The position numbers and the translations under genes are program-made. A model generated the notes under the pieces. The model did no database searches. It was not told the DNA's origin and was given only the letters and a program-made list of their open reading frames with translations. Below, one piece after another: positions 1,469 through 14,930 of a DNA stretch of 14,930 nt (position 1 is the stretch's first letter; every line of letters starts with the position of its first letter). This DNA comes from Calditrichaceae bacterium (GTDB taxonomy: Bacteria > Calditrichota > Calditrichia > Calditrichales > JBFXGD01), in NCBI GenBank assembly GCA_050178385.1, contig JBFXGD010000078.1, positions 1 through 14,930 on the forward strand, in the 5' to 3' direction.

Positions 1469-3928
1469 CTAGCCAAGATATTTTGACATCTTCTGATAAA
1501 CAGCTTCTTTAAGAGATTCGTATGTATGATTTTCCGGATAAACCGGGCTGTGAAATTTCACAAATATCTTCTTAAAAGGTTTTGGAAAATGGCTGCCTGA
1601 CGGTAAAGCTTCAAACGCGCCTCTGATGGTGACCGGTACAACGGGAACATTCAATTCGCGGCTTAGAATGGCGAAGGTTTTCTTGAAAGAACCAATATGA
1701 CCGTCTTTTGAGCGTGTTCCTTCCGGAAAGATGATGATATTTTTACCCTTCTTTAAGGCGGCGGCCATCTTCTGCAGGGAAATTTTCAGGTCTTTATTGA
1801 TATCCATAATGATGACATTGTTCCGGTCAGCGATAAATTTGAGCCATTTTTTGCTGACGTGTTTTTCTTTCGCGTAAAAATAGGTTTTTTTCATCTGCTT
1901 GTTTTTGAGAAAAGAGACAACAAAAAGACCATCGAAAAAACTCTGGTGATTTGGCGCGAGTATAAATGGCGACTCCGGCAAATTCTCGGTGCCTTCACCT
2001 TTTAACCGGAAATATAAGTTCAGAAATACCCGTGAAGTGTTTTTGAACAGATTATGCGTGAACCAGCTTTTCGGCAGATTAATATCCAGTTTTTCCCGCA
2101 GAATATCGCCCCAGTTTACCGTTTCCACATCGATTTTAACTTTTTCGTCACGGACGACGAGCGCCAGTTTTTCTATAGTCGGGTACTGCATAAACTCTTC
2201 TTCTTTGATATCTACGCCAAAGGTAGAATTCAGGAATACCTGTAAACTTACTTTTCCAAGGGAGTCAAGACCAAGATCGATTTCTATATGATCGTCATGA
2301 TAGACTTCACGGCCTGCTTCTTCATTGAGAAATTGCTTAATGATTTTGTATTCTTCGAAATCCGGTTCTTCTCCGCGCTGTCTCTCACTGCGCGTATCTT
2401 CAGACAATGATGGAAGCATAAAACGCTTGACTTTGCCAAGCCTTGTCTTCGGAAGTTCCTCTTTTAGAATACTGAAATTGGTGATTCTTTTGTATGGTGA
2501 AACCTGGGAATTATATTTATTGATAATTTCCTGCCTGAAAATTTCTTCAATATTTAATAAACCATCCTCCTGAATCCTGGCGAAGTCGGGATAAATTGCC
2601 GCCTGAAGTGTATCACCTTTCAGGAATACGCCGATTTCGTTGATATATGCGGACATGTTTAGGATTTTGAACTCAACTTCCACCGGATTTACATTCTTGC
2701 CATTGGGGAGAATAATAATTTCTTTTTTACGACCGGTAATGACCAGATGACCGTCTTTGTCCAATCTTCCCAGATCCCCTGTGTAAAGCCATCCATCCTT
2801 TAATATTTCGTCAGTCTCCTCTTTCCGGTTATAATATCCCTGCATCACGTTTCTGCCCTTGGCGGTAATTTCGCCTTCATCGGTGATGCGGATTTCATTG
2901 GTCATCATCCGTTCGCCGGCGGATCCTATTTTCCATCTGCCGGGACGGGTAAAGGAGATCATCGGCGCGGCTTCTGTCATGCCGTAACCGGGCAGTATTT
3001 CGAAACCCAGAGTCTTGTAGTCCCTGGCGACTTCATCATCGATGGCGGCTCCACCGCATACCATAAAGTGGACATTACCGCCGAATTTTTGTTGTACGGT
3101 TTTGAACAACACCTTTGAGAATGCCCGTGAATCAATTTTTTCCGCCAGCTTGAACAGGGTTTTGGTAACCGCGCTTTTATTAATTTTGTCCATTATGCCT
3201 TTTCTTATAAGATTATAAAATCGCGGTACGCCGATGATAATGGCGATGGCATTGTTCTGCAGGGTTTCCATGATGTCTTCCGCCGCCATGGAAGGGGCGA
3301 AAGCGATCGTTGAACCCACAGAAAGCGGCGCGATCATCGAACCAATCAGCGGGAATGTGTGATGCAAAGGCAATAACACCATCACGTTTCTGTCAGATGT
3401 GTAAATATTGACATAATCAGAAACAGCTTCAACATTTGCCAGAATATTATCAAAAGAAAGCATGACGCCTTTCGGACTTCCGGTTGTTCCCGATGTATAA
3501 ATAATTAACGCTGTTTTGTCTTTATCGGGTTCGGGAAATACGGAGTTTACCGAAGGCGCGTTACGGATATCGATATCTTCAAATTTTAGAACTTTTTGGT
3601 CATACGTTACCGTTTGCAGCGCGCTCTCAACCGTTTTGTAAGTTTCATTGGAGCAGAAAATAATTTCAGGTTTACAGTCATTTAATATATACGCGACTTC
3701 ATCGGAAGTAGACATATAATCGATTGGAACGGCGATACAATCATTTTTCCAGGACGCGTAAAACGCATATACCCAGTCAAGGCTGTTTTCGGCGAAAATT
3801 GCGACCTTTTTTGTTTTGGCGGATTCAAATAATCCGGAGTAATAATCAACATTTTTTACAAGCGTTTCGTAACTGATTTTCAGGTCTTTCCAGACGAGGG
3901 CCGTTTTACCGTGATCTTTTAGAAACAA
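1469..3928 (-). CDS. Tri-domain long-chain fatty acid AMP-ligase / acyl carrier protein / PlsC-type acyltransferase (Aas-like), 819 aa
   Basis: AMP-binding motifs YTSGTTGSPKG, GYGMTE, GWLYTGDLG and GRKKEII. Phosphopantetheine site DLGLDSL (Ser codon at 2261-2263). Acyltransferase motifs NHQSFFD (HX4D) and FPEGTRS. Start revised to TTG at 3928 (AAGGAG 6 nt upstream) because the ORF-track extension to 4009 overlaps the promoter. Confidence 0.9.
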   Translation of the reverse strand: MFLKDHGKTALVWKDLKISYETLVKNVDYYSGLFESAKTKKVAIFAENSLDWVYAFYASWKNDCIAVPIDYMSTSDEVAYILNDCKPEIIFCSNETYKTVESALQTVTYDQKVLKFEDIDIRNAPSVNSVFPEPDKDKTALIIYTSGTTGSPKGVMLSFDNILANVEAVSDYVNIYTSDRNVMVLLPLHHTFPLIGSMIAPLSVGSTIAFAPSMAAEDIMETLQNNAIAIIIGVPRFYNLIRKGIMDKINKSAVTKTLFKLAEKIDSRAFSKVLFKTVQQKFGGNVHFMVCGGAAIDDEVARDYKTLGFEILPGYGMTEAAPMISFTRPGRWKIGSAGERMMTNEIRITDEGEITAKGRNVMQGYYNRKEETDEILKDGWLYTGDLGRLDKDGHLVITGRKKEIIILPNGKNVNPVEVEFKILNMSAYINEIGVFLKGDTLQAAIYPDFARIQEDGLLNIEEIFRQEIINKYNSQVSPYKRITNFSILKEELPKTRLGKVKRFMLPSLSEDTRSERQRGEEPDFEEYKIIKQFLNEEAGREVYHDDHIEIDLGLDSLGKVSLQVFLNSTFGVDIKEEEFMQYPTIEKLALVVRDEKVKIDVETVNWGDILREKLDINLPKSWFTHNLFKNTSRVFLNLYFRLKGEGTENLPESPFILAPNHQSFFDGLFVVSFLKNKQMKKTYFYAKEKHVSKKWLKFIADRNNVIIMDINKDLKISLQKMAAALKKGKNIIIFPEGTRSKDGHIGSFKKTFAILSRELNVPVVPVTIRGAFEALPSGSHFPKPFKKIFVKFHSPVYPENHTYESLKEAVYQKMSKYLG

Positions 3929-3959
3929 GCTGTTCTCCTTATCTATATGCTTAGCTGTA

Positions 3960-3988
3960 ATTATAATGATAATATTGCATTTTGTAAA
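3960..3988 (-). promoter_or_regulatory. sigma70-type promoter of the acyl-ligase fusion gene
   Basis: Minus strand reads TTTACA (3988-3983), 17 bp, TATAAT (3965-3960), about 30 nt upstream of the TTG start. Confidence 0.75.
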
Positions 3989-4137
3989 GGCTAAAGTGCC
4001 TGAAAACAAAGTATAAAATCAAAAATTGCCGTATGAAAGATGGTTTAAATCAATTAGTAATACTGTAGGTTATGACGCAGAAACCAGAACCTGAAAAACA
4101 TATTTTTTATCTCATACCTTCATAAAAAATTATTTTA

Positions 4138-4166
4138 TTGACAATGATAAAGGTATGTTTTATACT
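4138..4166 (+). promoter_or_regulatory. Near-consensus sigma70 promoter of the operon
   Basis: TTGACA (4138-4143), 17 bp, TATACT (4161-4166), with an AT-rich UP-element-like tract upstream. Confidence 0.85.
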
Positions 4167-4174
4167 TGATTTAA

Positions 4175-4188
4175 GTTGTACGGACAAC
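4175..4188. promoter_or_regulatory. Putative GntR/HutC-family operator
   Basis: Palindrome GTTGT-ACGG-ACAAC just downstream of the predicted +1. It resembles HutC-subfamily sites (TTGTA-NN-ACAA type), and a GntR-UTRA gene lies in the operon. Confidence 0.75.
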
Positions 4189-4226: not shown

Positions 4227-5621
4227 ATGAAATTTAATCGACTTGGCAGTGTAGTTACGGCCATTCTGATTATACCCGCCGTCTTGCTCTGCTCACAAAA
4301 CTCACTTATCCCCGCGGATACCCTGACCATCGGATTGATAGGCGATCAGACCGGATCATATGACCTGTCGGCGACCTATCAAATCATGGAAAAGGCGGTT
4401 GAACAGATGGATGCTAAAAATCCCGATCTCGTACTGCATGTAGGCGATCTGGTTGAAAGCATCAGAGGCATCAACTCCTTTGAAGATTATAAATCGAATT
4501 TTGACTATGCTGTGAACATACTCAATCGTCTGAATGCGCCCTGGTATCTCACCGCGGGTGATCATGATGTGGCACCACCTGTTTATCAGGCCGGATCATG
4601 TGACAGATCAAGGGAAGAATGGTTCCAGAAACTGTGTTCAGCCGCCGGTTTGCCCATGGAAAAGCAACTATATTACAGTTTCGACTTTAATAATTATCAT
4701 TTTATTTCCCTTTACTCCCTTGAAAATTTACATACCGATCCCAGATGGGGTCCCATTTTTTTGAATCAGTTGTCTGATGAACAAATCGCCTGGTTAAAGA
4801 ACGATCTGGAAGCTCACAAAAACGCGCCGGGGATCATAGTCCTTGTACATCAGCCTCACTGGTATGTGTGGTCAAACTGGTCGGAAATTCACCAAATACT
4901 CAGACAATATCCGGTTGCGGCGGTCATTGCAGGACATTTTCATTATGATCAGGATGACGGTATGATCGATCAGATAAGATACCTGGTGATGGGCGCCACG
5001 GGAGGCGTCGTTAAAAATATGGATCCCAATTCAGGCGGATCATCTCAATTCGCTACTCTTAAGCTGTATAAGAACAAGGTTACCCATATCAATCTTTTTG
5101 ATCTTTCATCGGGTGAATCTCTTGAACTGACGCCCCGCAGGACCATGGACCGGCTTCAGGCGCTCTCCTGTATGCTTGATAATTTGTTTATGGATGAAAA
5201 TATAGGCCGTAAGAACGGACAGCTTTTTACCATCACAGGCGAAGGCCAGTACAGCTCATTGAAACAAATCGGCCTGGAATCACTGGCGAATCCGATCGAT
5301 TTGCCGATTCGAATTAAGATAAGCACGGACCGGGATATACTTCAAAATCCGCGCTGGATCCGTTCAGGGAAGTCAATCCCGGATTCTTCTTTTATCGAAT
5401 TGGAACCCGGTGAGAGAACTGGCTGGGCAAATTATACCAGTGTGGGGCAATGGGCTAAACCGGATCCTTTATGGGTGTGTGATCTTACCGGTAATCCGGA
5501 GAGATTAAAGGATCTTACCGGTATTGCCATAACGATAAAGATTTCATTCACTGATCAGGGTGAACGCTGGGTTGAATCAACTGCCCGTTTTCCCGTAAAA
5601 AAAATTGAAGACAATTTATAG
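4227..5621 (+). CDS. Secreted/periplasmic calcineurin-like metallophosphoesterase with a C-terminal domain of unknown function, 464 aa
   Basis: ATG at 4227 follows GGAG. Signal-peptide-like N-terminus MKFNRLGSVVTAILIIPAVLLCSQ. Motifs GDQTG, HVGDLVE, AGDHD, VHQPH and AGHFH. The ORF-track TTG at 4176 lies within the operator. Confidence 0.85.
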   Translation: MKFNRLGSVVTAILIIPAVLLCSQNSLIPADTLTIGLIGDQTGSYDLSATYQIMEKAVEQMDAKNPDLVLHVGDLVESIRGINSFEDYKSNFDYAVNILNRLNAPWYLTAGDHDVAPPVYQAGSCDRSREEWFQKLCSAAGLPMEKQLYYSFDFNNYHFISLYSLENLHTDPRWGPIFLNQLSDEQIAWLKNDLEAHKNAPGIIVLVHQPHWYVWSNWSEIHQILRQYPVAAVIAGHFHYDQDDGMIDQIRYLVMGATGGVVKNMDPNSGGSSQFATLKLYKNKVTHINLFDLSSGESLELTPRRTMDRLQALSCMLDNLFMDENIGRKNGQLFTITGEGQYSSLKQIGLESLANPIDLPIRIKISTDRDILQNPRWIRSGKSIPDSSFIELEPGERTGWANYTSVGQWAKPDPLWVCDLTGNPERLKDLTGIAITIKISFTDQGERWVESTARFPVKKIEDNL

Positions 5622-5651: not shown

Positions 5652-6428
5652 ATGGCAGTAAACGTTACAGAAATTGAAAAATCAAGTGTAATACCAATTT
5701 ATCACCAGTTGTACTCCATTCTGCTCGATTTAATACACAGCGAAGTTTATAAGCCTTATGACCGGCTTCCTTCGGAAAATGAACTCACCGCGCAATATAA
5801 AATCAGCCGTCAAACGGCTCAAAAAGCTTTAAATGTCCTTGTTGAACAGGGAATTGCTCACCGGATGCAGGGGAAGGGTACTTTTGTGAGCGATAAGACG
5901 ATCACTTACAGCATCACTGCCTCTTTGAGTTATTCCACGGAAATAATCGGATTAAATAAAGTTCCCCGAAGCGAGTTAATTCATGCAAAGGAAATTGAAA
6001 CATCAGGTCTTATCTCAAGGAATCTCTCGCTGGACGAAGGATCTCCCGTTTACAGCATTCAAAGGGTTCGTTATGTGGATGATATTCCAATGGCTTTGCA
6101 GACTTCCTATATACCGAAATATCTCGTACCCGGACTGATCGATAAAAAATTTGAAGAAGGCTCATTGTTTAAAACGATACGCAAAGAATACCAGCTGGAA
6201 ATCGGTCACGCCACTGAATATTTGAAAGCGGTAAAATGCGATCAATATGAATCCAAAAGGCTCTGCATTATGGAAGGAGACGCTATTCTGCTCCTTGAAA
6301 GAATCACCCGCTTAAAGGACGGTAGAATTCTTGAATTTGTAAGGTCCGTCCTGAGGGGCGACAAAAGCAAGATATCAATCGATCTGTCAACCTATACTAA
6401 CGGGGAGAGGAAAACTGTTGGAAGATAA
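5652..6428 (+). CDS. GntR-family transcriptional regulator, HutC subfamily (wHTH + UTRA)
   Basis: PIYHQL...RLPSENELTAQYKISRQTAQKALNVLVEQG...QGKGTFV, followed by a UTRA-like domain (RVRYVDDIPM...SLFKTI...LLLERIT...EFVRSVLRGD). Confidence 0.93.
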   Translation: MAVNVTEIEKSSVIPIYHQLYSILLDLIHSEVYKPYDRLPSENELTAQYKISRQTAQKALNVLVEQGIAHRMQGKGTFVSDKTITYSITASLSYSTEIIGLNKVPRSELIHAKEIETSGLISRNLSLDEGSPVYSIQRVRYVDDIPMALQTSYIPKYLVPGLIDKKFEEGSLFKTIRKEYQLEIGHATEYLKAVKCDQYESKRLCIMEGDAILLLERITRLKDGRILEFVRSVLRGDKSKISIDLSTYTNGERKTVGR

Positions 6429-6939
6429 ACGCGGACATTTCAACACCGGAACGGGCAAAAAAGAATATTTTACCCCGAAAAGAATCGCGCGCATTTCCAT
6501 CCTGATTGCCATTAGCGCGGTGGGTTCATTAATAAAGATTCCAAGCCCCACAGGAACAGTCTCTCTTGACGCGTGTACCGGGTATTTCTCGGCAGTGACA
6601 TTCGGCTGGATTGAAGGATCGCTTGTGGGTGGCCTCGGGCATATGCTGTCGGCTTTTACAACCGGTTTTCCACTCGGCCTTCCGGTACATCTCTATATCG
6701 CGTTTCAGATGGCTATCTGGGTTTCGGTATTCTCAATCATCGCCCGTAAAATTAATCTGATCCTTGCTGTCATTGCGGCCATCTTCTTAAATGGAGTGGT
6801 TTCATCCTATTTAATAATTCCGTTTGGCGGTATGGGTATGGCGACCGCCCTTTTAATTCCGCTGATTGTGGGCTCGGCGGTTAATATCATTATTGCCGCT
6901 CTGGCTTATAGAATTGTTCAAAAGAGTAATTTTGTATGA
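6418..6939 (+). CDS. cblT: ECF transporter S component, CblT-like (alpha-ribazole transporter family)
   Basis: 173 aa hydrophobic protein. IKIPSPTGTVSLD...GHMLSAFTTGFPLGLPVHL matches the CblT signature as I recall it (GH.LSA...GFPL.LP.HL). It sits directly upstream of a cblS-like gene. TTG start follows GGAGAGG. Confidence 0.8.
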   Translation: MEDKRGHFNTGTGKKEYFTPKRIARISILIAISAVGSLIKIPSPTGTVSLDACTGYFSAVTFGWIEGSLVGGLGHMLSAFTTGFPLGLPVHLYIAFQMAIWVSVFSIIARKINLILAVIAAIFLNGVVSSYLIIPFGGMGMATALLIPLIVGSAVNIIIAALAYRIVQKSNFV

Positions 6940-7763
6940 AAACAGAACTATTACCTGAACTGGATATGCTTTATTCTCATCTTAAAAAGGGTGAAAATAA
7001 CTTTAAGCATAGCCAGGTAAGAGATCTCACCAAAATTGGTCTGGGGAACGGCTATTCTCTTATAGTGGCGGTAGATTCGGACGGCGGGATCGGCTCGCGT
7101 CCGGGAGATTTTGTCAAAACGGATGATTATCTGGTTGGCAGATTTGCCATGCGTGTGCCTTTGTTGGAGATTCTGGCTTCCGGCGCGCTCCCGCTGGCCG
7201 CGTTTGATACATTGACTTTGCCCATGGATGATCACGGACTGAAAATTATCAAAGGCATAAAAGATGAATTAATGGAAGCGGGACTCGGAAAGGATTTTCC
7301 GCTGTCCGGGAGCACGGAAGACAATGTACCGACAAAGGAAACCGGTATCGGCACCATGGTGATTGGTATCGTTCATGACAGAGATTTTCGTCCGGGAACC
7401 GGCGTCGCGGGTGACGTGGTTGTTTGTCTCGGAATACCGAAATCTGCTCCCGGGGACAAAGTTACTATTGATGATGCTCAGATTGTGAAATTGAAAGAAA
7501 TAAGGCAAATATCGGAAAAATCTGATATTCATGACATTCTTCCGGTGGGATCTCATGGGGTTTTATATGAAGCTATGAAAATGGCGGACTCTGCCGGATT
7601 AAACTTTAGGGTGCTGGAAAATTCAGGAATTGATCTTAAAAAATCCGGAGGCCCGGGTACCTGTATCATTCTATCCTGTAAAGTAATGATGGGAAAAGCA
7701 CTCCGGAAGTTAACAGGCGCTCCTGTGACAAAAATCGGACAGCTGGAAAAAAGAAGTATCTGA
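6936..7763 (+). CDS. cblS: CblS-like alpha-ribazole kinase (PurM/AIR-synthase-related fold)
   Basis: QVRDLT, DSDGGIG, RVPLLEILASGA, GIKDEL, GSTEDN, PVGSHG.LYEA and KSGGPGTC follow, in order, the motifs I recall from Listeria CblS (QVRDLS, RVALLEMLASGA, GLKDEL, GSTEEN, PVGSKGMAYEA, KTAGPAS). ATGA overlap with cblT. Confidence 0.8.
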   Translation: MKTELLPELDMLYSHLKKGENNFKHSQVRDLTKIGLGNGYSLIVAVDSDGGIGSRPGDFVKTDDYLVGRFAMRVPLLEILASGALPLAAFDTLTLPMDDHGLKIIKGIKDELMEAGLGKDFPLSGSTEDNVPTKETGIGTMVIGIVHDRDFRPGTGVAGDVVVCLGIPKSAPGDKVTIDDAQIVKLKEIRQISEKSDIHDILPVGSHGVLYEAMKMADSAGLNFRVLENSGIDLKKSGGPGTCIILSCKVMMGKALRKLTGAPVTKIGQLEKRSI

Positions 7764-7805: not shown

Positions 7806-9536
7806 TTGAATTTAATCTTTGAAAATGTCAATTACCAGTACCCAAAAGGTAAGACGCTTGCGCTCAAAGATATCAATTTAGCCACAGGCGGAGATCGTGT
7901 AATTGCGTTGATGGGACGGACCGGATCGGGCAAGACAACGTTGTTAAGCGCAATGAACGGGATTATACCTCAGTTTCATGACGGTAATTTTGACGGAAAA
8001 GTTCTGCTGAATGAGGACTCTACATCCGATCTGCCTATTCAGCAGCTTGTCCGCAAGGTGGGTCTTGTTCTACAGGACCCGGAGACACAGATTTTTGGAT
8101 TAACTGTTGAAAAAGACATCGCCTTCGGCCCAAGTAATTTGAATTTTCCAAAAGAAAAAATAAATGAAATTGTAAAAATGTCCGCTAGAGCCGTTAATCT
8201 GGAATCATTTATGGAAAGGTCTCCCGATCAGCTCTCCGGGGGCGAAAAACAACGGCTCGCCATTGCCGGCATACTTGCTCTTGAGTCACCGGTGCTGGTT
8301 CTGGATGAACCAACTTCTGAACTGGATCCGGAAGGCGCGGAAACAGTCAATCAGGCATTACAAAATTTGAAGAACGGGGGACACCGGCTGATCATTTTCA
8401 GCACCCATAATCCCGATAATGTAATCGGTTCAGCGGATGAAATATGGGTCATGGAAAGCGGTGAAATTAAATATATAGGCGATCCCGGAAATTTTTTCAG
8501 TCATATGGATTTACCGGGAATTTACGGATTGCAAATTCCGGAGGTAACCGATCTTTTTAGAAAAATGCATTACCTCAATTGGTACAAAAAAGATGAACTG
8601 CCTGTGACTCTGGAATCGGCCGTTTCGGATTTTGAAAAAATTCTGAAAAAAGTAAAAAATATTAATGTGCCGCGTGCCAAATATCTTATGACGCGGTCTG
8701 CCGGATCGCAGAACAGAATTATTGAGATAGACAGATTAAGTCACCATTACACCAGCGGACAGCTTGCGGTGGACAATGTGTCGCTTACGATTAATTCGCA
8801 GCAGATTGTCGCAATCCTTGGTAAAAACGGCGCGGGCAAAACCACGCTGGTCAAACATCTGATCGGGTTGCTAAGACCCACTCAGGGAAGGGTGTTGATC
8901 AAAGGCCGGGACATCGCGGATCTCAGAATCGAGGAGATAAGCCGTGATGTGGGTTTTGTGTTTCAGAACCCGGATCATCAGATATTTTCACCGTCAATCT
9001 ATGAAGAAATTGAATATGGTCTGCTTAATCATGGATTTGATAAAGTGTCAGCAAAAGAAAAAATTCAGAATGCTCTGGAACTGACAGGACTTACCGGTAA
9101 GGAGCATTTACACCCGTTCAGCCTGAGTAAAGGAGAGAGACAAAAAATTGCCATGGCATCCGTCCTGGCGGTGGAGCCTGAAATAATTGTAATCGATGAG
9201 CCCACTACCGGTCTTGACTGGAGAGATTCCATAGCTCTCATGGAAGAAATACGCAAACTAAAGGAAAAAGGCCATACGATCATTATGATTACACACAACC
9301 TGCGTCTGGCGGCTGATTATGCGGATAAAGTGATTCTATTGCAGAATGGTAAACTGATTTGTGAAGGAGAAACCCACTCCATATTGAATGATATGGAGTT
9401 GCTGAAGAAAACCTCATTGAGGCCTTTGCAGATCTCGCTGTTGGTTCACAGGATGAAAAAATACGGAATACCACAGGATATCATCACGATAAGCGAATTA
9501 ATTGATTATATGAAATTTGTAATACAGGAAAACTAG
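7806..9536 (+). CDS. ECF transporter fused double ATPase (EcfA-EcfA')
   Basis: Two ABC cassettes: GRTGSGKT / LQDPETQ / LSGGEKQR / LDEPT and GKNGAGKT / FQNPDHQ / LSKGERQK / IDEPT. The Q-helix PxxQ is typical of ECF ATPases. Confidence 0.92.
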   Translation: MNLIFENVNYQYPKGKTLALKDINLATGGDRVIALMGRTGSGKTTLLSAMNGIIPQFHDGNFDGKVLLNEDSTSDLPIQQLVRKVGLVLQDPETQIFGLTVEKDIAFGPSNLNFPKEKINEIVKMSARAVNLESFMERSPDQLSGGEKQRLAIAGILALESPVLVLDEPTSELDPEGAETVNQALQNLKNGGHRLIIFSTHNPDNVIGSADEIWVMESGEIKYIGDPGNFFSHMDLPGIYGLQIPEVTDLFRKMHYLNWYKKDELPVTLESAVSDFEKILKKVKNINVPRAKYLMTRSAGSQNRIIEIDRLSHHYTSGQLAVDNVSLTINSQQIVAILGKNGAGKTTLVKHLIGLLRPTQGRVLIKGRDIADLRIEEISRDVGFVFQNPDHQIFSPSIYEEIEYGLLNHGFDKVSAKEKIQNALELTGLTGKEHLHPFSLSKGERQKIAMASVLAVEPEIIVIDEPTTGLDWRDSIALMEEIRKLKEKGHTIIMITHNLRLAADYADKVILLQNGKLICEGETHSILNDMELLKKTSLRPLQISLLVHRMKKYGIPQDIITISELIDYMKFVIQEN

Positions 9537-10337
9537 ATGTTTTTAGAATACCAAAAGGGGAATTCGATTCTGCATAGACTCGATATCAGGACAAAGGGAC
9601 TGGGGTTTATCGTTGTCGTCATTGCTGCTTTTTTGTTTACAGCACCCGAGTATAATTTAATCATATTAATTCTGTGCCTGGCATTAATGAGACACATCCG
9701 GATGCCGGCGAGCAGGCTGGAGATGATGCTTAAGCCCCTGATCCCTATCCTGATTTTAATAATACTTTTCTCAGCGGTTTCTTACAGTCCTGAATATTTT
9801 CAGAAACCTATGTCTCAAAAAGTCTTGTTCTCAGCAGGATTTATGACATGCACGGTTGGCGGCATTCTGCTGGGTATTTCTCTAAGCATCAGAATACTGA
9901 CCATGGTAATCGCCTCGACGCTACTGACTTATTCAACACCGATTGATGACTTTATACACATACTCAGGCTTATGCGAGTTTCGCATAAAATTGCCTTTGT
10001 TCTCACAACAGGAATGAGATTTATACCAACCATGGACAAAAAATCACGACAAATTATAGAGGCGCAAAGAACCAGAGGCGCTAATTTCCATGAGGGCGGC
10101 CTGGTCCGTAAAATCAAAGCTTATATTCCGGTAATGGTCCCGATGATCGTCGAATCGCTCCGCATGTCGGAAAACCTGGCTATGGCGATGCTGAACCGCG
10201 GGTTCGGCGCGTCAAAAAACTGGACGGTTATGGACGAGCTGAATCCGGGTATAAAAGATGCCGTTATTACGATTTCTTTACTGTTTATTATCACTCTGTT
10301 GATTTATTTAAAAATTTTAGGATACGGAAAAATCTGA
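9537..10337 (+). CDS. ecfT: ECF transporter transmembrane T component
   Basis: Y..GNSILHRLDIRTK N-terminus, RFIPT motif, and two coupling Arg motifs (EAQRTRG, AMLNRGF). Starts immediately after the ATPase stop (TAGATG). Confidence 0.92.
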   Translation: MFLEYQKGNSILHRLDIRTKGLGFIVVVIAAFLFTAPEYNLIILILCLALMRHIRMPASRLEMMLKPLIPILILIILFSAVSYSPEYFQKPMSQKVLFSAGFMTCTVGGILLGISLSIRILTMVIASTLLTYSTPIDDFIHILRLMRVSHKIAFVLTTGMRFIPTMDKKSRQIIEAQRTRGANFHEGGLVRKIKAYIPVMVPMIVESLRMSENLAMAMLNRGFGASKNWTVMDELNPGIKDAVITISLLFIITLLIYLKILGYGKI

Positions 10338-10350
10338 AAAGGAAAATGTT

Positions 10351-11352
10351 ATGTCTGAACTGGAAGAAAGAATTTATGGTGCGTTAATTGGGGTTGCGGC
10401 GGGTGATGCCATGGGTATGCCCTCGTCAATGATGAGTCCGGAAATCATTCGCTCTACTTTCAAGACATACATCACCGATTTCCTGCCGGCTCCGAAAGGA
10501 CATGTCATACATGATAAGATGGCAGCAGGGCAAATAACCGATGATACACAGCAAACCCTGTCACTGGCGGATTCAATCATTGAGAAGGGGTTTGTGGATC
10601 CGCATGATGTGGCAAAAAAACTTATCGAATGGGCGGAATCGGTTGATGCCTTCGATTCAATGATTCTTGGGCCGAGTACGCTTCGAAGCCTTTACGCAAT
10701 CAAGGCAGGCAAGTCAATTGAGGAATCCGGGACAGCGGGGGATACAAACGGCGCGGCAATGAAAATAAGCCCGGCAGGAATTTTTGGAATGGGCAATCGT
10801 GAAAAAACGGTCGATGCGGTCGCGAAAGTTTGCATGGCTACTCACAACACCAATATTGCGATTGCGGGGGCATCTGCTGTCGCGATGGCTGTGGGCAAAG
10901 GTATCACCGGTGAACAGGACATGAATACAATCATCGCGCACGCGTTTCAGGCGGTGGAGCTCGGGATGGGAAAGGGAAGGATATGGTACGGGGCATCGAT
11001 CATTGACCGCACAAGATTGGCGCTTGAAATTGTCTCCGGAAATTCCGAGAAATCCGAAAAACTGGAAACGCTTTACAAAGTCATTGGCGCGGGTGTTGCT
11101 ATGACGGAAACGGTTCCCGTTTGTCTGGCCATCGCCAAACTGGCTGAAGGCAATCCGGTGGAGGCGATTCAGATGGCGACGAACCTCGGCGGAGACTGTG
11201 ATACAATCGCTTCTATTACAGGCGGAATTTGCGGGGCCATCTCCGGGTCCAGGGCATTCCCCAATAAATGGATTGAAATAATTGAAAGAGTTAATCATTT
11301 AAATCTGGAGGGGTACGCGCGCAAATTATATCAGGTCGTCAATAAAAATTAG
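10351..11352 (+). CDS. ADP-ribosylglycohydrolase (DraG/ARH family), YegU-like subgroup
   Basis: GALIGVAAGDAMGMP, QITDDT, LGPST, TNGAAMKISP, TH, LYKVIGAG...ETVP and NLGGDCDTIA. The metal-binding TDD and DxDT motifs are intact. No signal peptide, so cytoplasmic. Confidence 0.92.
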   Translation: MSELEERIYGALIGVAAGDAMGMPSSMMSPEIIRSTFKTYITDFLPAPKGHVIHDKMAAGQITDDTQQTLSLADSIIEKGFVDPHDVAKKLIEWAESVDAFDSMILGPSTLRSLYAIKAGKSIEESGTAGDTNGAAMKISPAGIFGMGNREKTVDAVAKVCMATHNTNIAIAGASAVAMAVGKGITGEQDMNTIIAHAFQAVELGMGKGRIWYGASIIDRTRLALEIVSGNSEKSEKLETLYKVIGAGVAMTETVPVCLAIAKLAEGNPVEAIQMATNLGGDCDTIASITGGICGAISGSRAFPNKWIEIIERVNHLNLEGYARKLYQVVNKN

Positions 11353-11371: not shown

Positions 11372-13261
11372 ATGTCCATTTTTAATCATCTTCGAATTTA
11401 TGCAATTGTTTTATTTTTAATCGTACTTGTATCGCATACATTGGGTAGTGATGACTCGACGAAAGTAAAACAGGATAGGATGGCGGAACGGGTGATTCTT
11501 ACCGCCGAGGATTTTAAGAAATTAAATTGTGAAAATGTCGGTGACGCTTTGAGTAATCTTTCGGGTGTCACGGTGAGTTCATTAGGGGAGGTCTCTCTAA
11601 GAGATGTAAGTTCATCAAAAGTGGTCATCATATTTGACGGACAAAAATTAAATACAGCCGGCGGAACCGGAGTCAGGGTCAATTCTATTTCGATTGAAAA
11701 TATTGAAAAGGTAGAGCTTCTGAGGGGCGGCCGGTCAGCTCAGTACGGCGCCGATGCTGTCGGAGGTGTTATACGTATTACTTCAAAAACACAGAAATCT
11801 CAGGAAGCTCTCTGGAACGTTGGCGCGAGGGCCAGTTACGGTTCATACAACAATCAGATATACGGTTTAAATCACTCTCTTTCTTCGGGTTCATTTGATT
11901 ATTTTGCTTCCTATAAACGGGAAACATGGGATGGTGACTTTGAATACACTGACAATTTCGGAGAACGGGTCAATCTTGAAAATAACGAGCAGGATTCTTA
12001 TTTTCTGTTTCTTAAATCCGGTTACAGGCTGGATGACATCCAGAACATCAACGCCTCATTCAGTTATTACAAAGCGGACAATGGTACACCTGGTATGATT
12101 GACAACCAGACTCCGAACGCGCGTATCCGTTTTGATAACAAATCCTACAATCTCAACTATGACAATAAAGCTCTATTTAAAGATTTCTCAATGAAAATGC
12201 AGGGATATTTTCTGGACAATGAGACAAAATTTGATGACCCGGACGGTTTGGTACCCGTTCACAGTGATCATGACAATTATGCGCTGGGAATTGATCTGCA
12301 GCAGGCGGGAAACCTTTCGGAACTGCTGAGTGTTTCCTATGGTTATTCCTATCGAAACGACCGTATTGAAAGCACGGATATCGAGAATAAAAACCGGGAT
12401 ACACAGAGCGGTTTCTCAACGCTCACCATTGCTAAGGATGTGAATAAATTGATCTCGCGCTGGGATGTTGCCCTTGCCCTGAGATATGATGCTCCTTCAG
12501 ATTTTGACCCCGAATTCAGTCCGCGCCTAAGCATCGGTGTTTCAAGCAATAATGACCTGGTAAACACTTCATTGCAGACTCATATAACCCGTTCATACCG
12601 CGCGCCCACGTTTAATGATCTGTATTGGCCCCGTGATGCTTTCGCGGTCGGAAATCCTGATCTTAAGCCCGAAGTAGGATTTAATTATGATATCGGAATT
12701 AATCTGTCAAAAACGATTGAATCGGCAAATTTGTCCGGATCAGTAAACTACTTCGTCAATGAGGTAACGGATTTAATCCTGTGGGCTCAGGACCCGGCTT
12801 TGAACAATTTATGGACCCCAAAAAACATATCGGAAACATCGACTAAGGGAATTGAATTTTCAAGTACGATTGATCTGTTTAAAGGCAAAGTCGTTTTGAA
12901 TTCGGAATACACCTATATGAAAGCCCTGGATAAGGGTCCTGATCCGAACAGGAATAACAAGTATATCATTTACAAACCCAAAAATAAATTAGATTTTACC
13001 GGGACATTCAGACTGTACGATTTTGAATGGAATATCATGTATCATTATTACGGATTGCGGTACACTAACCCCGCGAATACGTTGTGGCTCGATGCGGTGA
13101 GCCTGATTGATACAAATGTAACTTATAAATTCGACTTTAATCGTTATAAAGCAAATATCACCTTTGAGGTAAGTAATCTCACCGATGAAGACTATCAGCG
13201 TGTGCGGAATACCGCTGAACCCGGAAGAATGTTTAAGATGTCATTTGGAATAGATATTTAG
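11372..13261 (+). CDS. TonB-dependent outer-membrane receptor, BtuB-like (copy 1; no N-terminal extension, no evident TonB box)
   Basis: Signal peptide. Plug motifs VVIIFDGQKLN and IEKVELLRGGRSAQYGADAVGGVIRI. Barrel motif YRAPTFNDLYW...GNPDLKPE. C-terminal NLTDEDY...PGRMFKMSFGIDI. Confidence 0.88.
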   Translation: MSIFNHLRIYAIVLFLIVLVSHTLGSDDSTKVKQDRMAERVILTAEDFKKLNCENVGDALSNLSGVTVSSLGEVSLRDVSSSKVVIIFDGQKLNTAGGTGVRVNSISIENIEKVELLRGGRSAQYGADAVGGVIRITSKTQKSQEALWNVGARASYGSYNNQIYGLNHSLSSGSFDYFASYKRETWDGDFEYTDNFGERVNLENNEQDSYFLFLKSGYRLDDIQNINASFSYYKADNGTPGMIDNQTPNARIRFDNKSYNLNYDNKALFKDFSMKMQGYFLDNETKFDDPDGLVPVHSDHDNYALGIDLQQAGNLSELLSVSYGYSYRNDRIESTDIENKNRDTQSGFSTLTIAKDVNKLISRWDVALALRYDAPSDFDPEFSPRLSIGVSSNNDLVNTSLQTHITRSYRAPTFNDLYWPRDAFAVGNPDLKPEVGFNYDIGINLSKTIESANLSGSVNYFVNEVTDLILWAQDPALNNLWTPKNISETSTKGIEFSSTIDLFKGKVVLNSEYTYMKALDKGPDPNRNNKYIIYKPKNKLDFTGTFRLYDFEWNIMYHYYGLRYTNPANTLWLDAVSLIDTNVTYKFDFNRYKANITFEVSNLTDEDYQRVRNTAEPGRMFKMSFGIDI

Positions 13262-13268
13262 GAAAAAC

Positions 13269-14930
13269 ATGTATTCAAAAATGATCAAATACTGTTTTAC
13301 AGTTTGCGCCTTTCTTCTTATGGGAAATGAGGATCTGAACGCGCAGGACAGCGGGAAAATCTATGGGTATATACTGGACAGAAATACGGGAAAACCTATA
13401 GAACAGGCCTGTGTCGTGCTTGATCCGGATTCAATCGGCGCAGAAACTAATTTCGACGGCATTTATTTTATTCCGAAGATACCCTCGGGCAGGTATCAGC
13501 TGCGAGTTGAGATGATCGGTTACGAAACCATTTCAGAGCATTCCGTTACAATTCAGCCGAATGAATCCAGGGAAATGAATTTCTTTCTAAAGCCGATTAT
13601 CTTAACCGGCTCTGATGAGATTGTTGTCACCGCGACCCGTGGAAAATCAATGACGAATGAAGTTCCGGCATCGGTGGATGTCATAAGTATGGAAAAGATA
13701 CAGCTTCTTGCGCCGCAGAATATGGCGGAAGTGCTTGAAAATGTACAGGGTGTATTTATTAAGGATTACGGAGGCATCGGTGGGAATAAGACCATCTCAC
13801 TAAGAGGCTCCAGTTCGGAACAGGTGCTTGTTCTCCTGGACGGTCAGAGATTAAATGACGCGCAGAGCGGACAGGTTGATTTCAGCGCAATCTCTTTGGA
13901 AGGAGTTGAGAAAATTGAGGTGGTAAGGGGAGGTAATTCAGCACTTTACGGGGCTGACGCGGTGGGCGGCGTCATAAATATCATTACGAGTAAAAAACAC
14001 GACAGGGAAGGCATATCAGGTTCGTTAAAAATGATGAACGGTTCTTTTCAATCTTTATCCGTAGAACCCGCGCTTAAAGTCAGATATGATAATTTCGGCG
14101 GATCACTTAGCTTTAAATATCTCAGCAGCGAAGGAGACTTTTCTTATAAAAATCTTGAAGGCCGGGATGAAAAGCTCGACAATAATGACATTACCGCACA
14201 GGATCTGTTCGCGCGTTTTTACTATCTGTTTGACGACTCCCTTTTTCAAAGAACGCTGAATTTTTCATACAAATATTATGACTCCGAGAGAGGCAGCCCC
14301 GGGAATATTGAACTTCCGTATCGTTCTGCCCGTCTCTGGAACACAAGCCAGCAATTTAATACGACATTTTCCGGAAAAGTTTTTAATCTGATGAACGATC
14401 TTCAGGTTCAGGCCTACGCGCATACAGGTAATTCAAGATATAAAAATGACGAAGGCCTTGTTCTGATAGACAGCCGTTACGAAAACGGCACCTACGGTCT
14501 GGAAACACAGATGCAATCCATATTTACCGGCGGACAAATGCTCACATACGGCGCGGGTTACCGAAACGATTGGATGAACAGCGAAGAGTTTGCCGAAGAC
14601 CATACAAGGGATTCCTATTATATTTTTCTGCAAAATGAGACCGAAATTAAGATGAAAAACCATTATCCGCTGAAATCATTGACATTTGTGCCTGCCGTGC
14701 GGCTGGATGGATTTTCTGATTTCGGGTCACACGTATCTCCGAAAATCGGCGGAGTGATAAACTTTGGACACTCCTGGCAAACAGCTCTCAAATGGAACGC
14801 CGGTCTCAGTTACCGGGCGCCTAATTTTAACGAATTGTACTGGCCGGAAGACGCGTGGACAAAAGGAAATTCTGATCTGGAAGCGGAACACGGCTATGAC
14901 TGGGATGCGGGGATACGGCTTCGCTACCCG
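13269..14930 (+). CDS. TonB-dependent receptor, BtuB-like, with carboxypeptidase-regulatory-like N-terminal domain (copy 2; 3'-truncated by the window edge, not in ORF track)
   Basis: Manual translation is open from ATG 13269 to the end: MYSKMIKYCFTVCAFLLMGNEDLNAQDSGKIYGYILDRNTGKPIEQA...IGYET..., TonB box DEIVVTA (13614-13634), plug IKDYGGIGGNKTISLRGSSSEQVLVLLDG, IEVVRGGNSALYGADAVGGVINIIT, ...SYRAPNFNELYWPEDAWTKGNSDLEAE. Confidence 0.9.
   Translation, partial: MYSKMIKYCFTVCAFLLMGNEDLNAQDSGKIYGYILDRNTGKPIEQACVVLDPDSIGAETNFDGIYFIPKIPSGRYQLRVEMIGYETISEHSVTIQPNESREMNFFLKPIILTGSDEIVVTATRGKSMTNEVPASVDVISMEKIQLLAPQNMAEVLENVQGVFIKDYGGIGGNKTISLRGSSSEQVLVLLDGQRLNDAQSGQVDFSAISLEGVEKIEVVRGGNSALYGADAVGGVINIITSKKHDREGISGSLKMMNGSFQSLSVEPALKVRYDNFGGSLSFKYLSSEGDFSYKNLEGRDEKLDNNDITAQDLFARFYYLFDDSLFQRTLNFSYKYYDSERGSPGNIELPYRSARLWNTSQQFNTTFSGKVFNLMNDLQVQAYAHTGNSRYKNDEGLVLIDSRYENGTYGLETQMQSIFTGGQMLTYGAGYRNDWMNSEEFAEDHTRDSYYIFLQNETEIKMKNHYPLKSLTFVPAVRLDGFSDFGSHVSPKIGGVINFGHSWQTALKWNAGLSYRAPNFNELYWPEDAWTKGNSDLEAEHGYDWDAGIRLRYP

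Follow-up and report, generated by a model that had tools for sequence, protein, structure and literature searches.

The window, by which we mean the whole 14,930-nt stretch analyzed, carried an ADP-ribosylglycohydrolase (ARH)-family gene within a run of codirectional genes. All genes from position 4227 to position 14930 pointed in the same direction and either overlapped or were separated by gaps of at most 43 nt. The following features were identified.

4138..4188, + strand: promoter-like site TTGACA-17-TATACT (4138-4166) followed by the palindrome GTTGTACGGACAAC (4175-4188), a candidate HutC-type operator with a putative function
4227..5621, + strand: metallophosphoesterase, probably an extracytoplasmic lipoprotein (Pfam Metallophos, E 1e-14)
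5652..6428, + strand: GntR-family regulator with a UTRA effector domain, HutC subfamily (Pfam UTRA, E 5.5e-37; GntR, E 2.7e-17)
6418..6939, + strand: ECF S component (substrate capture), CblT-like (Pfam ECF_trnsprt, E 3.7e-15)
6936..7763, + strand: CblS-family (alpha-ribazole kinase-like) protein of the PurM/AIRS superfamily, 275 aa, proposed riboside 5'-kinase (Pfam AIRS N-domain, E 2.9e-5)
7806..9536, + strand: fused ECF A-A' ATPase with two ABC domains (TIGR04521, 469 bits; TIGR04520, 444 bits; both above the cut-off)
9537..10337, + strand: ECF T component (transmembrane scaffold; Pfam CbiQ, E 2.4e-31)
10351..11352, + strand: YegU-type ARH-family hydrolase, proposed alpha-ribotide glycohydrolase (uninterrupted ORF, 333 aa)
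11372..13261, + strand: TonB-dependent receptor 1, small, BtuB-like (Pfam Plug and beta-barrel; best NCBIfam match TonB-B12, 147 bits)
13269..14930, + strand: TonB-dependent receptor 2 with an N-terminal CarboxypepD_reg domain, open at the contig end (Pfam/NCBIfam)

The promoter-like site was the best such match in the region (11/12), and the palindrome behind it had a single exact occurrence in the window. When only perfect arms were counted, 14 of the 27 regions examined carried a GTTGT-N4-ACAAC palindrome upstream of that gene for the phosphoesterase. A wider regulon based on this motif was set aside; the genome had a single further exact copy, on contig C248, and it lay inside an ORF. The phosphoesterase ORF had been listed from a TTG at 4176, and the ATG at 4227 is the likely real start. 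Read by eye rather than by a predictor, the N-terminus from this ATG, MKFNRLGSVVTAILIIPAVLLC, probably comprises a signal peptide and a lipobox Cys. The only PDB relatives of the protein were purple acid phosphatases, and this match was weak (E 2.5e-4). The regulator shared 26% identity with E. coli YegW/GgaR over 145 residues (E 2e-20).

The S-component gene shared 11 nt with the regulator gene and 4 nt with the kinase gene. The ARH gene started 14 nt after the ECF T gene and ended 20 nt before the first receptor gene, and its position between ECF and BtuB-like genes was as the sequence-only reading had described. The likeness of the receptors to BtuB, however, was of the best-hit kind, with scores of 147 and 172 bits against a BtuB cut-off of 599.7 (TIGR01779); the cut-off of NF007926 was not reached either. 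The locus continued on contig C141 of the same genome with a BtuG-like propeller, a Peripla_BP_2 protein, AhcY, a CNT nucleoside transporter, and adenosine deaminase. The propeller matched the BtuG structures 8ptf and 8ptd (E 1.5e-9), but the generic YVTN propeller 1l0q scored better; for the Peripla_BP_2 binding protein, BtuF was the best or near-best match, with a score far below the BtuF cut-off. The receptors, propeller, and binding protein therefore resemble the BtuB-BtuG-BtuF corrinoid uptake system of Bacteroides, but all of their scores fell below the family cut-offs and no riboswitch was found here.

The ARH ORF matched PF03747 (ADP_ribosyl_GH) with E 8.5e-61 over model positions 1-286 of 287, and of 7725 candidates from a homology search, 1447 were homologues at E<=1e-3, the nearest of them with 95% identity. 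The AlphaFold2 model had a mean pLDDT of 96.1 and a pTM of 0.95, and Foldseek placed it nearest to MJ1187 (1t5j; TM 0.83, probability 1.00), followed by ARH3 and DraG. MJ1187, DraG, ARH3, and Tri1 shared the fold (TM 0.72-0.83) and both Asp-rich motifs with the window ARH at 18-26% identity; MJ1187 is uncharacterized, and the other three are protein or poly(ADP-ribose) hydrolases. The best PDB sequence relative was found at E 6.6e-30. The profile match and the predicted structure together confirmed that the ORF encodes a genuine ARH superfamily member with the all-helical ARH fold. Among named proteins, E. coli YegU was the closest (36% identity across 329 aligned residues, E 2e-65), and the similarity to YegU exceeded that to the characterized ARHs, which bears out the designation YegU-like. 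The first metal motif comprised T63-D64-D65 in 'QITDDTQQT' and the second D282-C283-D284-T285 in 'GGDCDTIAS'; both were invariant across 28 relatives except for C283. Many further residues of the pocket type (H51, H54, D131, and E253) were also invariant in the relatives aligned.

We further analyzed the product of 6936..7763. In the Atlas, neighbors of this ORF were named 'Alpha-ribazole kinase' (score 0.97), and a kinase profile search gathered 575 representatives, including P0297 (E 5.3e-55), which carries the UniRef name alpha-ribazole kinase and was 38% identical to the window protein in a pairwise comparison (E 2e-47). Sequence comparison thus identified the product as a CblS-family homologue, the compared members being automatically named and uncharacterized. 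A search for solved structures gave no PDB sequence match for the kinase at E<=1. For the S component, the nearest named Atlas cluster, second-nearest overall, was 'putative Alpha-ribazole transporter' (score 0.95), which serves as a lead only. The sequence-only reading of the window had not mentioned the CblS-family neighbor.

Geobacillus kaustophilus CblS reportedly accepts alpha-ribosides and does not accept beta-ribosides. ARH1, ARH3, and DraG act on alpha-linked ribosyl bonds, and PDB titles list ARH3 complexes with alpha-NAD+ and with alpha-1''-O-methyl-ADP-ribose. Because the kinase would yield an alpha-ribotide and the ARH family cleaves alpha-ribosyl bonds, an alpha-ribotide would be the most economical substrate for the ARH. 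Two reports describe CblS as the alpha-ribazole kinase and CblT as the transporter (PMC6461909; PMC6167548).

The ARH and the kinase occurred together in all 11 genome loci found with the ARH and in all 43 metagenome loci that the kinase profile recovered and that could be assessed. Among the latter, the two genes were directly adjacent in 37, split by ECF A/T genes only in five, and in reversed order in one, a locus of the actinobacterial type. The kinase-profile scan of metagenomes recovered the same clade only (at least 41% identity) and no distant Bacillota CblS loci. Four metagenome loci (L029, L032, L041, and L042) carried the pair without any other cassette gene, three of which (L029, L032, and L041) were checked by Pfam. 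Elsewhere, the conserved cassette comprised the lipoprotein metallophosphoesterase, the HutC-type GntR regulator, in some cases the ECF genes, the kinase, the ARH, two BtuB-like TonB receptors, the BtuG-like propeller, in some cases the BtuF-like binding protein, AhcY, and the CNT transporter. The phosphoesterase headed the cassette in 9 of the 11 genome loci and bore a CBM9-like domain in some loci, and the regulator was present in 10 of the 11. The CNT transporter, adenosine deaminase, and AhcY adjoined the cassette in both phyla, Calditrichota and Marinimicrobia, and were kept in L044 and L064, which have no TonB receptors. This synteny of the ARH with a CblS-type kinase suggests that the substrate is a small phosphorylated riboside rather than a modified protein.

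All 12 carrier genomes encoded B12-binding enzymes, and none encoded CobS or CobT; CobU and CbiB were not found in the genome of the window, which is 94% complete. These absences ruled out a biosynthetic role for the module, and with CobS missing from all 12 carriers, the kinase could not be placed upstream of CobS. The suggestion in the sequence-only reading that the ARH functionally reverses CobT was consequently not borne out: in genomes that lack CobT and CobS, the ARH cannot reverse CobT, and its product is unlinked to cobamide assembly. Nothing in the analysis supported alpha-DMB adenine dinucleotide, which had also been named as a substrate. Scanning the window against Rfam at E<=1 returned two chance-level matches only and no cobalamin riboswitch, and the whole genome gave no match to RF00174; riboswitch control was thereby ruled out.

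The reading that we tentatively favor, while granting it somewhat less than an even chance, is that the ARH performs the glycosidase step of a two-enzyme cytoplasmic module acting on an imported riboside and is not a protein de-ADP-ribosylase. Imported alpha-ribosides would be phosphorylated, and the resulting alpha-ribotide would be cleaved to a base and ribose-5-phosphate. The surface or periplasmic lipoprotein phosphoesterase would begin the route by stripping phosphate from an extracellular ribotide or nucleotide-loop fragment. The nucleoside would then enter through the TonB receptors in the outer membrane and through the ECF-CblT-like transporter, the CNT transporter, or both in the inner membrane. 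The CblS-family kinase would phosphorylate its 5'-OH, and the YegU-type ARH would hydrolyze the alpha-glycosidic C1' bond, releasing the free base and ribose-5-phosphate. The HutC-type repressor might sit on the GTTGTAYGGACAAC operator until released by a pathway intermediate. The most likely substrates would be nucleosides of cobamide lower ligands, for example alpha-ribazole or ribosides of the alpha-adenosine type. Since CobS, CobT, CobU, and CbiB are absent, such a route would serve degradation or base and ribose salvage rather than cobamide assembly.

The proposed order of reactions resembles pseudouridine catabolism, in which phosphorylation comes first and the nucleotide is then cleaved to base and ribose-5-phosphate. 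By this analogy, kinase followed by glycosidase may deliver ribose-5-phosphate at no extra ATP cost. PsuK and PsuG differ from the window enzymes in that their folds are unrelated and a C-glycoside is cleaved. The window locus also resembles the CblT/CblS salvage pathway of Bacillota, with homologues or look-alikes of both the kinase and the S component encoded by overlapping genes, as in the cblTS pair. The Bacillota product, however, feeds CobS, which, like CobT, is found in none of the 12 carriers, and the window locus adds an ARH and GntR regulation and has no riboswitch. The E. coli yegTUV-yegW(ggaR) unit likewise combines a nucleoside-type importer, a kinase, an ARH, and a HutC-type GntR regulator, but its kinase is not homologous: the unit has a PfkB-type kinase and an MFS importer, whereas the window locus has a CblS-type kinase and an ECF transporter. 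In addition, the E. coli unit contains neither TonB receptors nor a phosphoesterase, both of which are present here, and YegU lacks the counterparts of H51, H54, and D131. YegU is described as uncharacterized (PMC10819704), and in the literature that we found it appeared only as such.

Several observations count against the favored reading. Genomes without CobS and CobT have no obvious use for alpha-ribazole phosphate, and the supply of alpha-ribosides in the environment seems too small to warrant a pair of TonB receptors. AhcY, the CNT transporter, and adenosine deaminase point toward an ordinary metabolism of (beta) adenosine; the receptor and binding-protein scores lie far below the BtuB and BtuF cut-offs; and the cobalamin riboswitch is missing from the window and the whole genome. 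In addition, the E. coli regulator GgaR/YegW is reported to respond to ADP-glucose (PMC10819704). The notion of a small-molecule alpha-ribotide hydrolase, advanced in the sequence-only reading, therefore stands in part. It gained a CblS-family neighbor, a CblT-like S component, and a pair that was inseparable in all assessable loci, but the absence of CobS, CobT, and a riboswitch weakens it, and AhcY, CNT, and adenosine deaminase are equally compatible with a broader nucleoside theme.

A possible, albeit rather unlikely, alternative keeps the same import-kinase-ARH layout and replaces the cobamide nucleoside with another riboside. This could be an O- or N-ribosyl compound, such as ribosyl-adenosine, that remains once extracellular phosphodiesterases have digested material of the NAD, ADP-ribose, or poly(ADP-ribose) type, or a modified nucleoside released when RNA is turned over. 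Cleavage would give ribose-5-phosphate together with adenosine or a base, and adenosine would pass to the adjacent deaminase. The adjoining CNT, adenosine deaminase, and AhcY genes, present in both phyla even where TonB receptors are missing, are consistent with this alternative, as are the extracytoplasmic phosphoesterase with its occasional CBM9-like domain, the lack of a riboswitch and of cobamide assembly genes, and the HutC-type regulator, a type typical of catabolic operons. However, alpha-ribazole kinase is the only named activity of the kinase family, and the S component, receptors, propeller, and binding protein lean toward corrinoid-type relatives. Peripla_BP_2 proteins, moreover, are to our knowledge not associated with nucleosides.

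It is improbable that the ARH acts directly on an ADP-sugar or ADP-ribose-type nucleotide, with the kinase acting on the released sugar or in an unrelated step. Such an activity gave the ARH family its name, and a 'GDTNGAAM' loop of the GNGAAM type, which binds phosphate in ARH3, was conserved in the clade. The response of GgaR/YegW to ADP-glucose points the same way, and the authors of that work speculated that yegTUV acts on ADP-glucose (PMC10819704). The neighboring kinase, however, belongs to a riboside-kinase rather than a sugar-kinase family, the importers are of nucleoside or vitamin types, and YegU itself is uncharacterized.

The N-terminal GDAxGxxxE motif raised the question of whether the clade has lost or altered its activity. 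The glutamate of this motif has a role in catalysis. In the window ARH its position is occupied by Ser26, which was at least 90% conserved in the clade, whereas Glu was found in all four distinct solved relatives aligned (MJ1187, DraG, T. thermophilus ARH, and Tri1), in YegU, in the second ARH of the same genome, and in one actinobacterial relative. PDB titles describe ARH3 E41A as a substrate-trapping variant, and we infer from the motif rather than from an alignment that E41 is equivalent to the Ser26 position. The description of an intact ARH with TDD and DCDT ligands thus holds for the two metal motifs but not for the consensus Glu. This replacement may mean that the chemistry is different or the activity lost, which also weighs against the favored reading. 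That the clade is catalytically altered or inactive, serving as a binding or regulatory subunit or in a nonhydrolytic reaction, nevertheless appears doubtful. The six Asp/Thr ligand positions and many pocket-type residues (H51, H54, D131, and E253) were invariant, which resembles remodeling rather than decay, and the Glu-type actinobacterial ARH has the same partners.

A classical de-ADP-ribosylase for proteins or nucleic acids, comparable to DraG, Tri1, or ARH1 and placed in the operon by chance, would explain the ARH fold, the metal motifs, and the weak matches to DraG and Tri1 models, but is highly improbable given scores far under the equivalog cut-offs (DraG, TIGR02662, 85 versus 337; Tri1, NF041672, 73 versus 490), the strict synteny with a small-molecule kinase and transporters, the separate ARH paralogue beside a NUDIX gene elsewhere in the genome, and the lack of a transferase, nitrogenase, or toxin nearby, Pfam and NCBIfam scans having found no ADP-ribosyltransferase or toxin domain in any of the 12 ORFs scanned, as the sequence-only reading had stated.

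We found no literature joining ARH or glycohydrolase with ribazole beyond two irrelevant co-mentions, and the cobamide literature among the matches listed did not mention ARH. A broader proposal, which we consider rather unlikely, is that YegU-type ARHs, the orphan E. coli YegU among them, act as alpha-ribotide glycohydrolases in partnership with a riboside kinase, which would be of the CblS type here and of the PfkB type in enterobacteria. They would form an undescribed route by which B12 users unable to assemble B12 import and dismantle cobamide lower-ligand alpha-nucleosides. It is far less probable that the pair targets an intact cobamide, with the kinase and ARH acting at its free 5'-OH and its alpha-glycosidic bond, so that the lower base would be removed or exchanged without CobS or CobT. 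B12 lower ligands are exchanged between microbes, and the broader proposal, if true, would add a catabolic or salvage branch to this ecology. It would also widen ARH chemistry from macromolecular ADP-ribosylation to small-molecule alpha-ribotides and assign roles to a conserved operon of Calditrichota and Marinimicrobia, which have received little study. Orphan YegU-like ARHs are widespread: in addition to the 1447 relatives of the window ARH, the actinobacterial ARH had 2896 relatives at E<=1e-3. The strict genomic link between the ARH described here and a kinase family for which phosphorylation of alpha-ribosides is the sole known activity points to a concrete and testable substrate class.

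The ADP-ribosylglycohydrolase-family (ARH) gene occupies 10351-11352 of the forward strand of contig C78, which at 14,930 nt is the entire window and belongs to a 3.9-Mb metagenome-assembled genome (94% complete) whose nearest named relative is a Calditrichaceae metagenome-assembled genome with 95% protein identity. Its 333-aa product matched PF03747 from end to end (E 8.5e-61) and had 1447 database relatives at E<=1e-3. The predicted structure (mean pLDDT 96.1) displayed the ARH fold, and its best structural matches were MJ1187 (1t5j; TM 0.83), followed by ARH3 and DraG. Full-length alignment with E. coli YegU (36% identity, E 2e-65) was far stronger than the best match to a solved ARH (E 6.6e-30). 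T63-D64-D65 and D282-C-D284-T285 were both present and conserved; these results confirm the sequence-only reading of a genuine, YegU-like ARH with TDD and DCDT motifs. Its description of the enzyme as intact holds for both Asp-rich motifs but requires correction in the N-terminal GDAxGxxxE motif, in which Ser26 replaces Glu and is at least 90% conserved across the clade. The Glu is kept in the aligned MJ1187, DraG, T. thermophilus ARH, and Tri1, and also in YegU, the second ARH of the same genome, and an actinobacterial relative. H51, H54, D131, and W212 are invariant in the clade and absent from YegU. Ser26 and the invariant His51, His54, and Asp131 suggest an active site that was remodelled rather than decayed.

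All genes between ATG 4227 and the contig end point the same way and either overlap or lie at most 43 nt apart:
4138-4188: near-consensus promoter-like site TTGACA-17-TATACT and palindrome GTTGTACGGACAAC, upstream of the first gene
From ATG 4227, forward: metallophosphoesterase, first gene, with an apparent lipoprotein signal at its N-terminus
Second gene, forward: GntR/UTRA (HutC-type) regulator
Third gene, forward: ECF S component
Fourth gene, forward, 6936-7763: AIRS-like protein, 275 aa
Fifth gene, forward: fused ECF A-A' ATPase
Sixth gene, forward: ECF T component
10351-11352, forward: ARH
After the ARH, to the contig end, forward: two TonB-dependent receptors

The locus continues on contig C141 with a YncE/DUF5074 beta-propeller, a Peripla_BP_2 binding protein, an adenosylhomocysteinase (the sole copy in the genome, above the equivalog cut-off), a CNT nucleoside transporter, and an adenosine deaminase, also above its cut-off. 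The promoter-like site was the best such match of the region, and the palindrome comes after it. Of the 27 regions examined, from two phyla, 14 carry a GTTGT-N4-ACAAC palindrome ahead of the phosphoesterase orthologue; the palindrome is a candidate operator for the HutC-type regulator. Divergently placed at 1469-4009 (reverse strand) is an 846-aa fusion of an AMP-binding ligase, a phosphopantetheine carrier, and an acyltransferase, which resembles acyl-ACP-phospholipid O-acyltransferase (Aas) with a score under the cut-off and seems unrelated to the cassette.

The AIRS-like gene, which the sequence-only reading had not mentioned, accompanies the ARH consistently. In all 11 loci found through the ARH in reference genomes of Calditrichota and Marinimicrobia/Fidelibacterota, it lies beside the ARH or is separated from it by ECF genes only. 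Among 61 metagenome loci found with the kinase profile, the ARH was present in all 43 that were assessable: right next to the kinase gene in 37, past the ECF A/T genes in 5, and with the order inverted in one, L079. Of the remaining 18, one lacked a kinase match by tblastn and the others were truncated too early to be judged. The L079 ARH, which keeps the Glu and shares 90% identity with a Propionicimonas protein, is of an actinobacterial type; the pairing therefore reaches across distant phyla and includes both forms of the active site. The other cassette genes vary. ECF genes are limited to Caldithrix-like loci (3/11 genome loci), and a CNT transporter is the sole inner-membrane candidate in Marinimicrobia loci. 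The pair stands alone in L029, L032, L041, and L042 (Pfam scans covered the flanks of L029, L032, and L041). L044 and L064 lack TonB receptors; besides the kinase and ARH they have the regulator, ECF genes, and the CNT transporter or adenosine deaminase. Their phosphoesterase gene (L044:10753-12597, L064:4689-6590) comes after the ARH gene and encodes a fused C-terminal CBM9-like domain.

The Atlas clusters nearest to the AIRS-like protein were named 'Alpha-ribazole kinase' (Bacillota, score 0.97), and the second-nearest cluster of the ECF S component was named 'putative Alpha-ribazole transporter' (score 0.95); these names, like those of the matched proteins, are automatic annotations. An exhaustive search with a profile of 27 AIRS-like relatives retrieved 575 representative proteins, among them a Halanaerobium protein with the UniRef name alpha-ribazole kinase (E 5.3e-55; 38% pairwise identity, E 2e-47). 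Another of the retrieved proteins, from Alicyclobacillus (475 aa), joins a CblS-family domain to one of the precorrin-2 dehydrogenase/sirohydrochlorin ferrochelatase type, a fusion linking the family to corrinoid metabolism. Judged by its automatically named relatives, the AIRS-like protein is a CblS-family kinase homologue. Two papers identify CblS as the alpha-ribazole kinase and CblT as the transporter in a salvage route used by Firmicutes without CobT (PMC6461909; PMC6167548).

CobS, CobT, CbiB, and CobU were not found in the 94% complete host genome, which contains seven matches to B12-binding domains (some in frames the size of MetH or of a mutase), a PduO-type adenosyltransferase, and only one FecCD permease (contig C35). 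Among the 11 other carrier genomes, whose completeness is unstated, CobS and CobT were each found in 0/11 and B12-binding domains in 11/11. By gene content, the carriers are predicted cobamide users unable to attach the lower ligand. The earlier proposal that the enzyme functionally reverses CobT thus fails, which leaves degradation or salvage as the role of the route. The TonB receptors are BtuB-like, the binding protein is BtuF-like, and the propeller has solved BtuG proteins among its matches (E 1.5e-9), so named with every B12-type assignment under its family cut-off and a generic YVTN propeller outscoring BtuG. A paralogous trio on contig C235 (BtuB-like TonB receptor, YVTN beta-propeller, and BtuF-like binding protein) is a second uptake set of corrinoid or haem type.

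E. coli yegT-yegU-yegV with yegW follows the same logic (importer, kinase, ARH, and HutC-type repressor), whereas its kinase has a fold unrelated to the CblS family, which points to conservation of a pathway that would import a riboside, phosphorylate it with the kinase, and then cleave it with the ARH. ARHs act on alpha-ribosyl bonds, and PDB titles of the structural matches include ARH3 with alpha-NAD+ and alpha-methyl-ADP-ribose. To our knowledge, the sole described activity of the CblS kinase family is on alpha-ribosides. An alpha-ribotide, such as alpha-ribazole-5'-phosphate, is therefore the most economical substrate, a proposal that we hold tentatively, at somewhat less than even confidence. 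The core of the earlier claim of a small-molecule alpha-ribotide hydrolase is supported by the kinase partner and the uptake genes, which lean toward a corrinoid connection, although its chemistry is predicted.

Several points weigh against an alpha-ribotide: alpha-ribosides are scarce as nutrients, ordinary adenosine handling would suit the conserved neighbours (AhcY, CNT, and adenosine deaminase), and no cobalamin riboswitch (RF00174) was detected in the whole host genome despite its B12-dependent enzymes and B12-type uptake genes, whose sub-threshold assignments count the same way. Another riboside as the substrate is the next most probable reading. The E. coli regulator reportedly responds to ADP-glucose; an ADP-sugar or ADP-ribose would be an improbable substrate. 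The Ser26 substitution may alter the chemistry of the ARH; an altered or inactive enzyme is unlikely. Protein de-ADP-ribosylation is very improbable, the 12 window ORFs scanned containing no transferase or toxin domain. The ARH lies between the ECF T gene and the two TonB-dependent receptors, and both observations agree with the first reading.

In the literature covered, YegU figures solely as a putative enzyme with no assigned function (PMC10819704). In one literature collection, searches linking ADP-ribosylglycohydrolase or glycohydrolase to ribazole yielded only irrelevant co-mentions, and the top 15 of 382 matches on BtuB, corrinoids, and cobamides did not mention an ARH. The cassette appears undescribed in the literature covered; what would be new is that an ARH-family enzyme has been recruited, together with a CblS-family kinase, to process small-molecule ribosides.

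The second ARH paralogue of the host genome (C37:4454-5413; 30% identical) directly follows a NUDIX hydrolase gene. Genes for a GFO/IDH/MocA oxidoreductase and a ROK kinase come after it, and this paralogue is possibly the ADP-ribose-related ARH of the genome.
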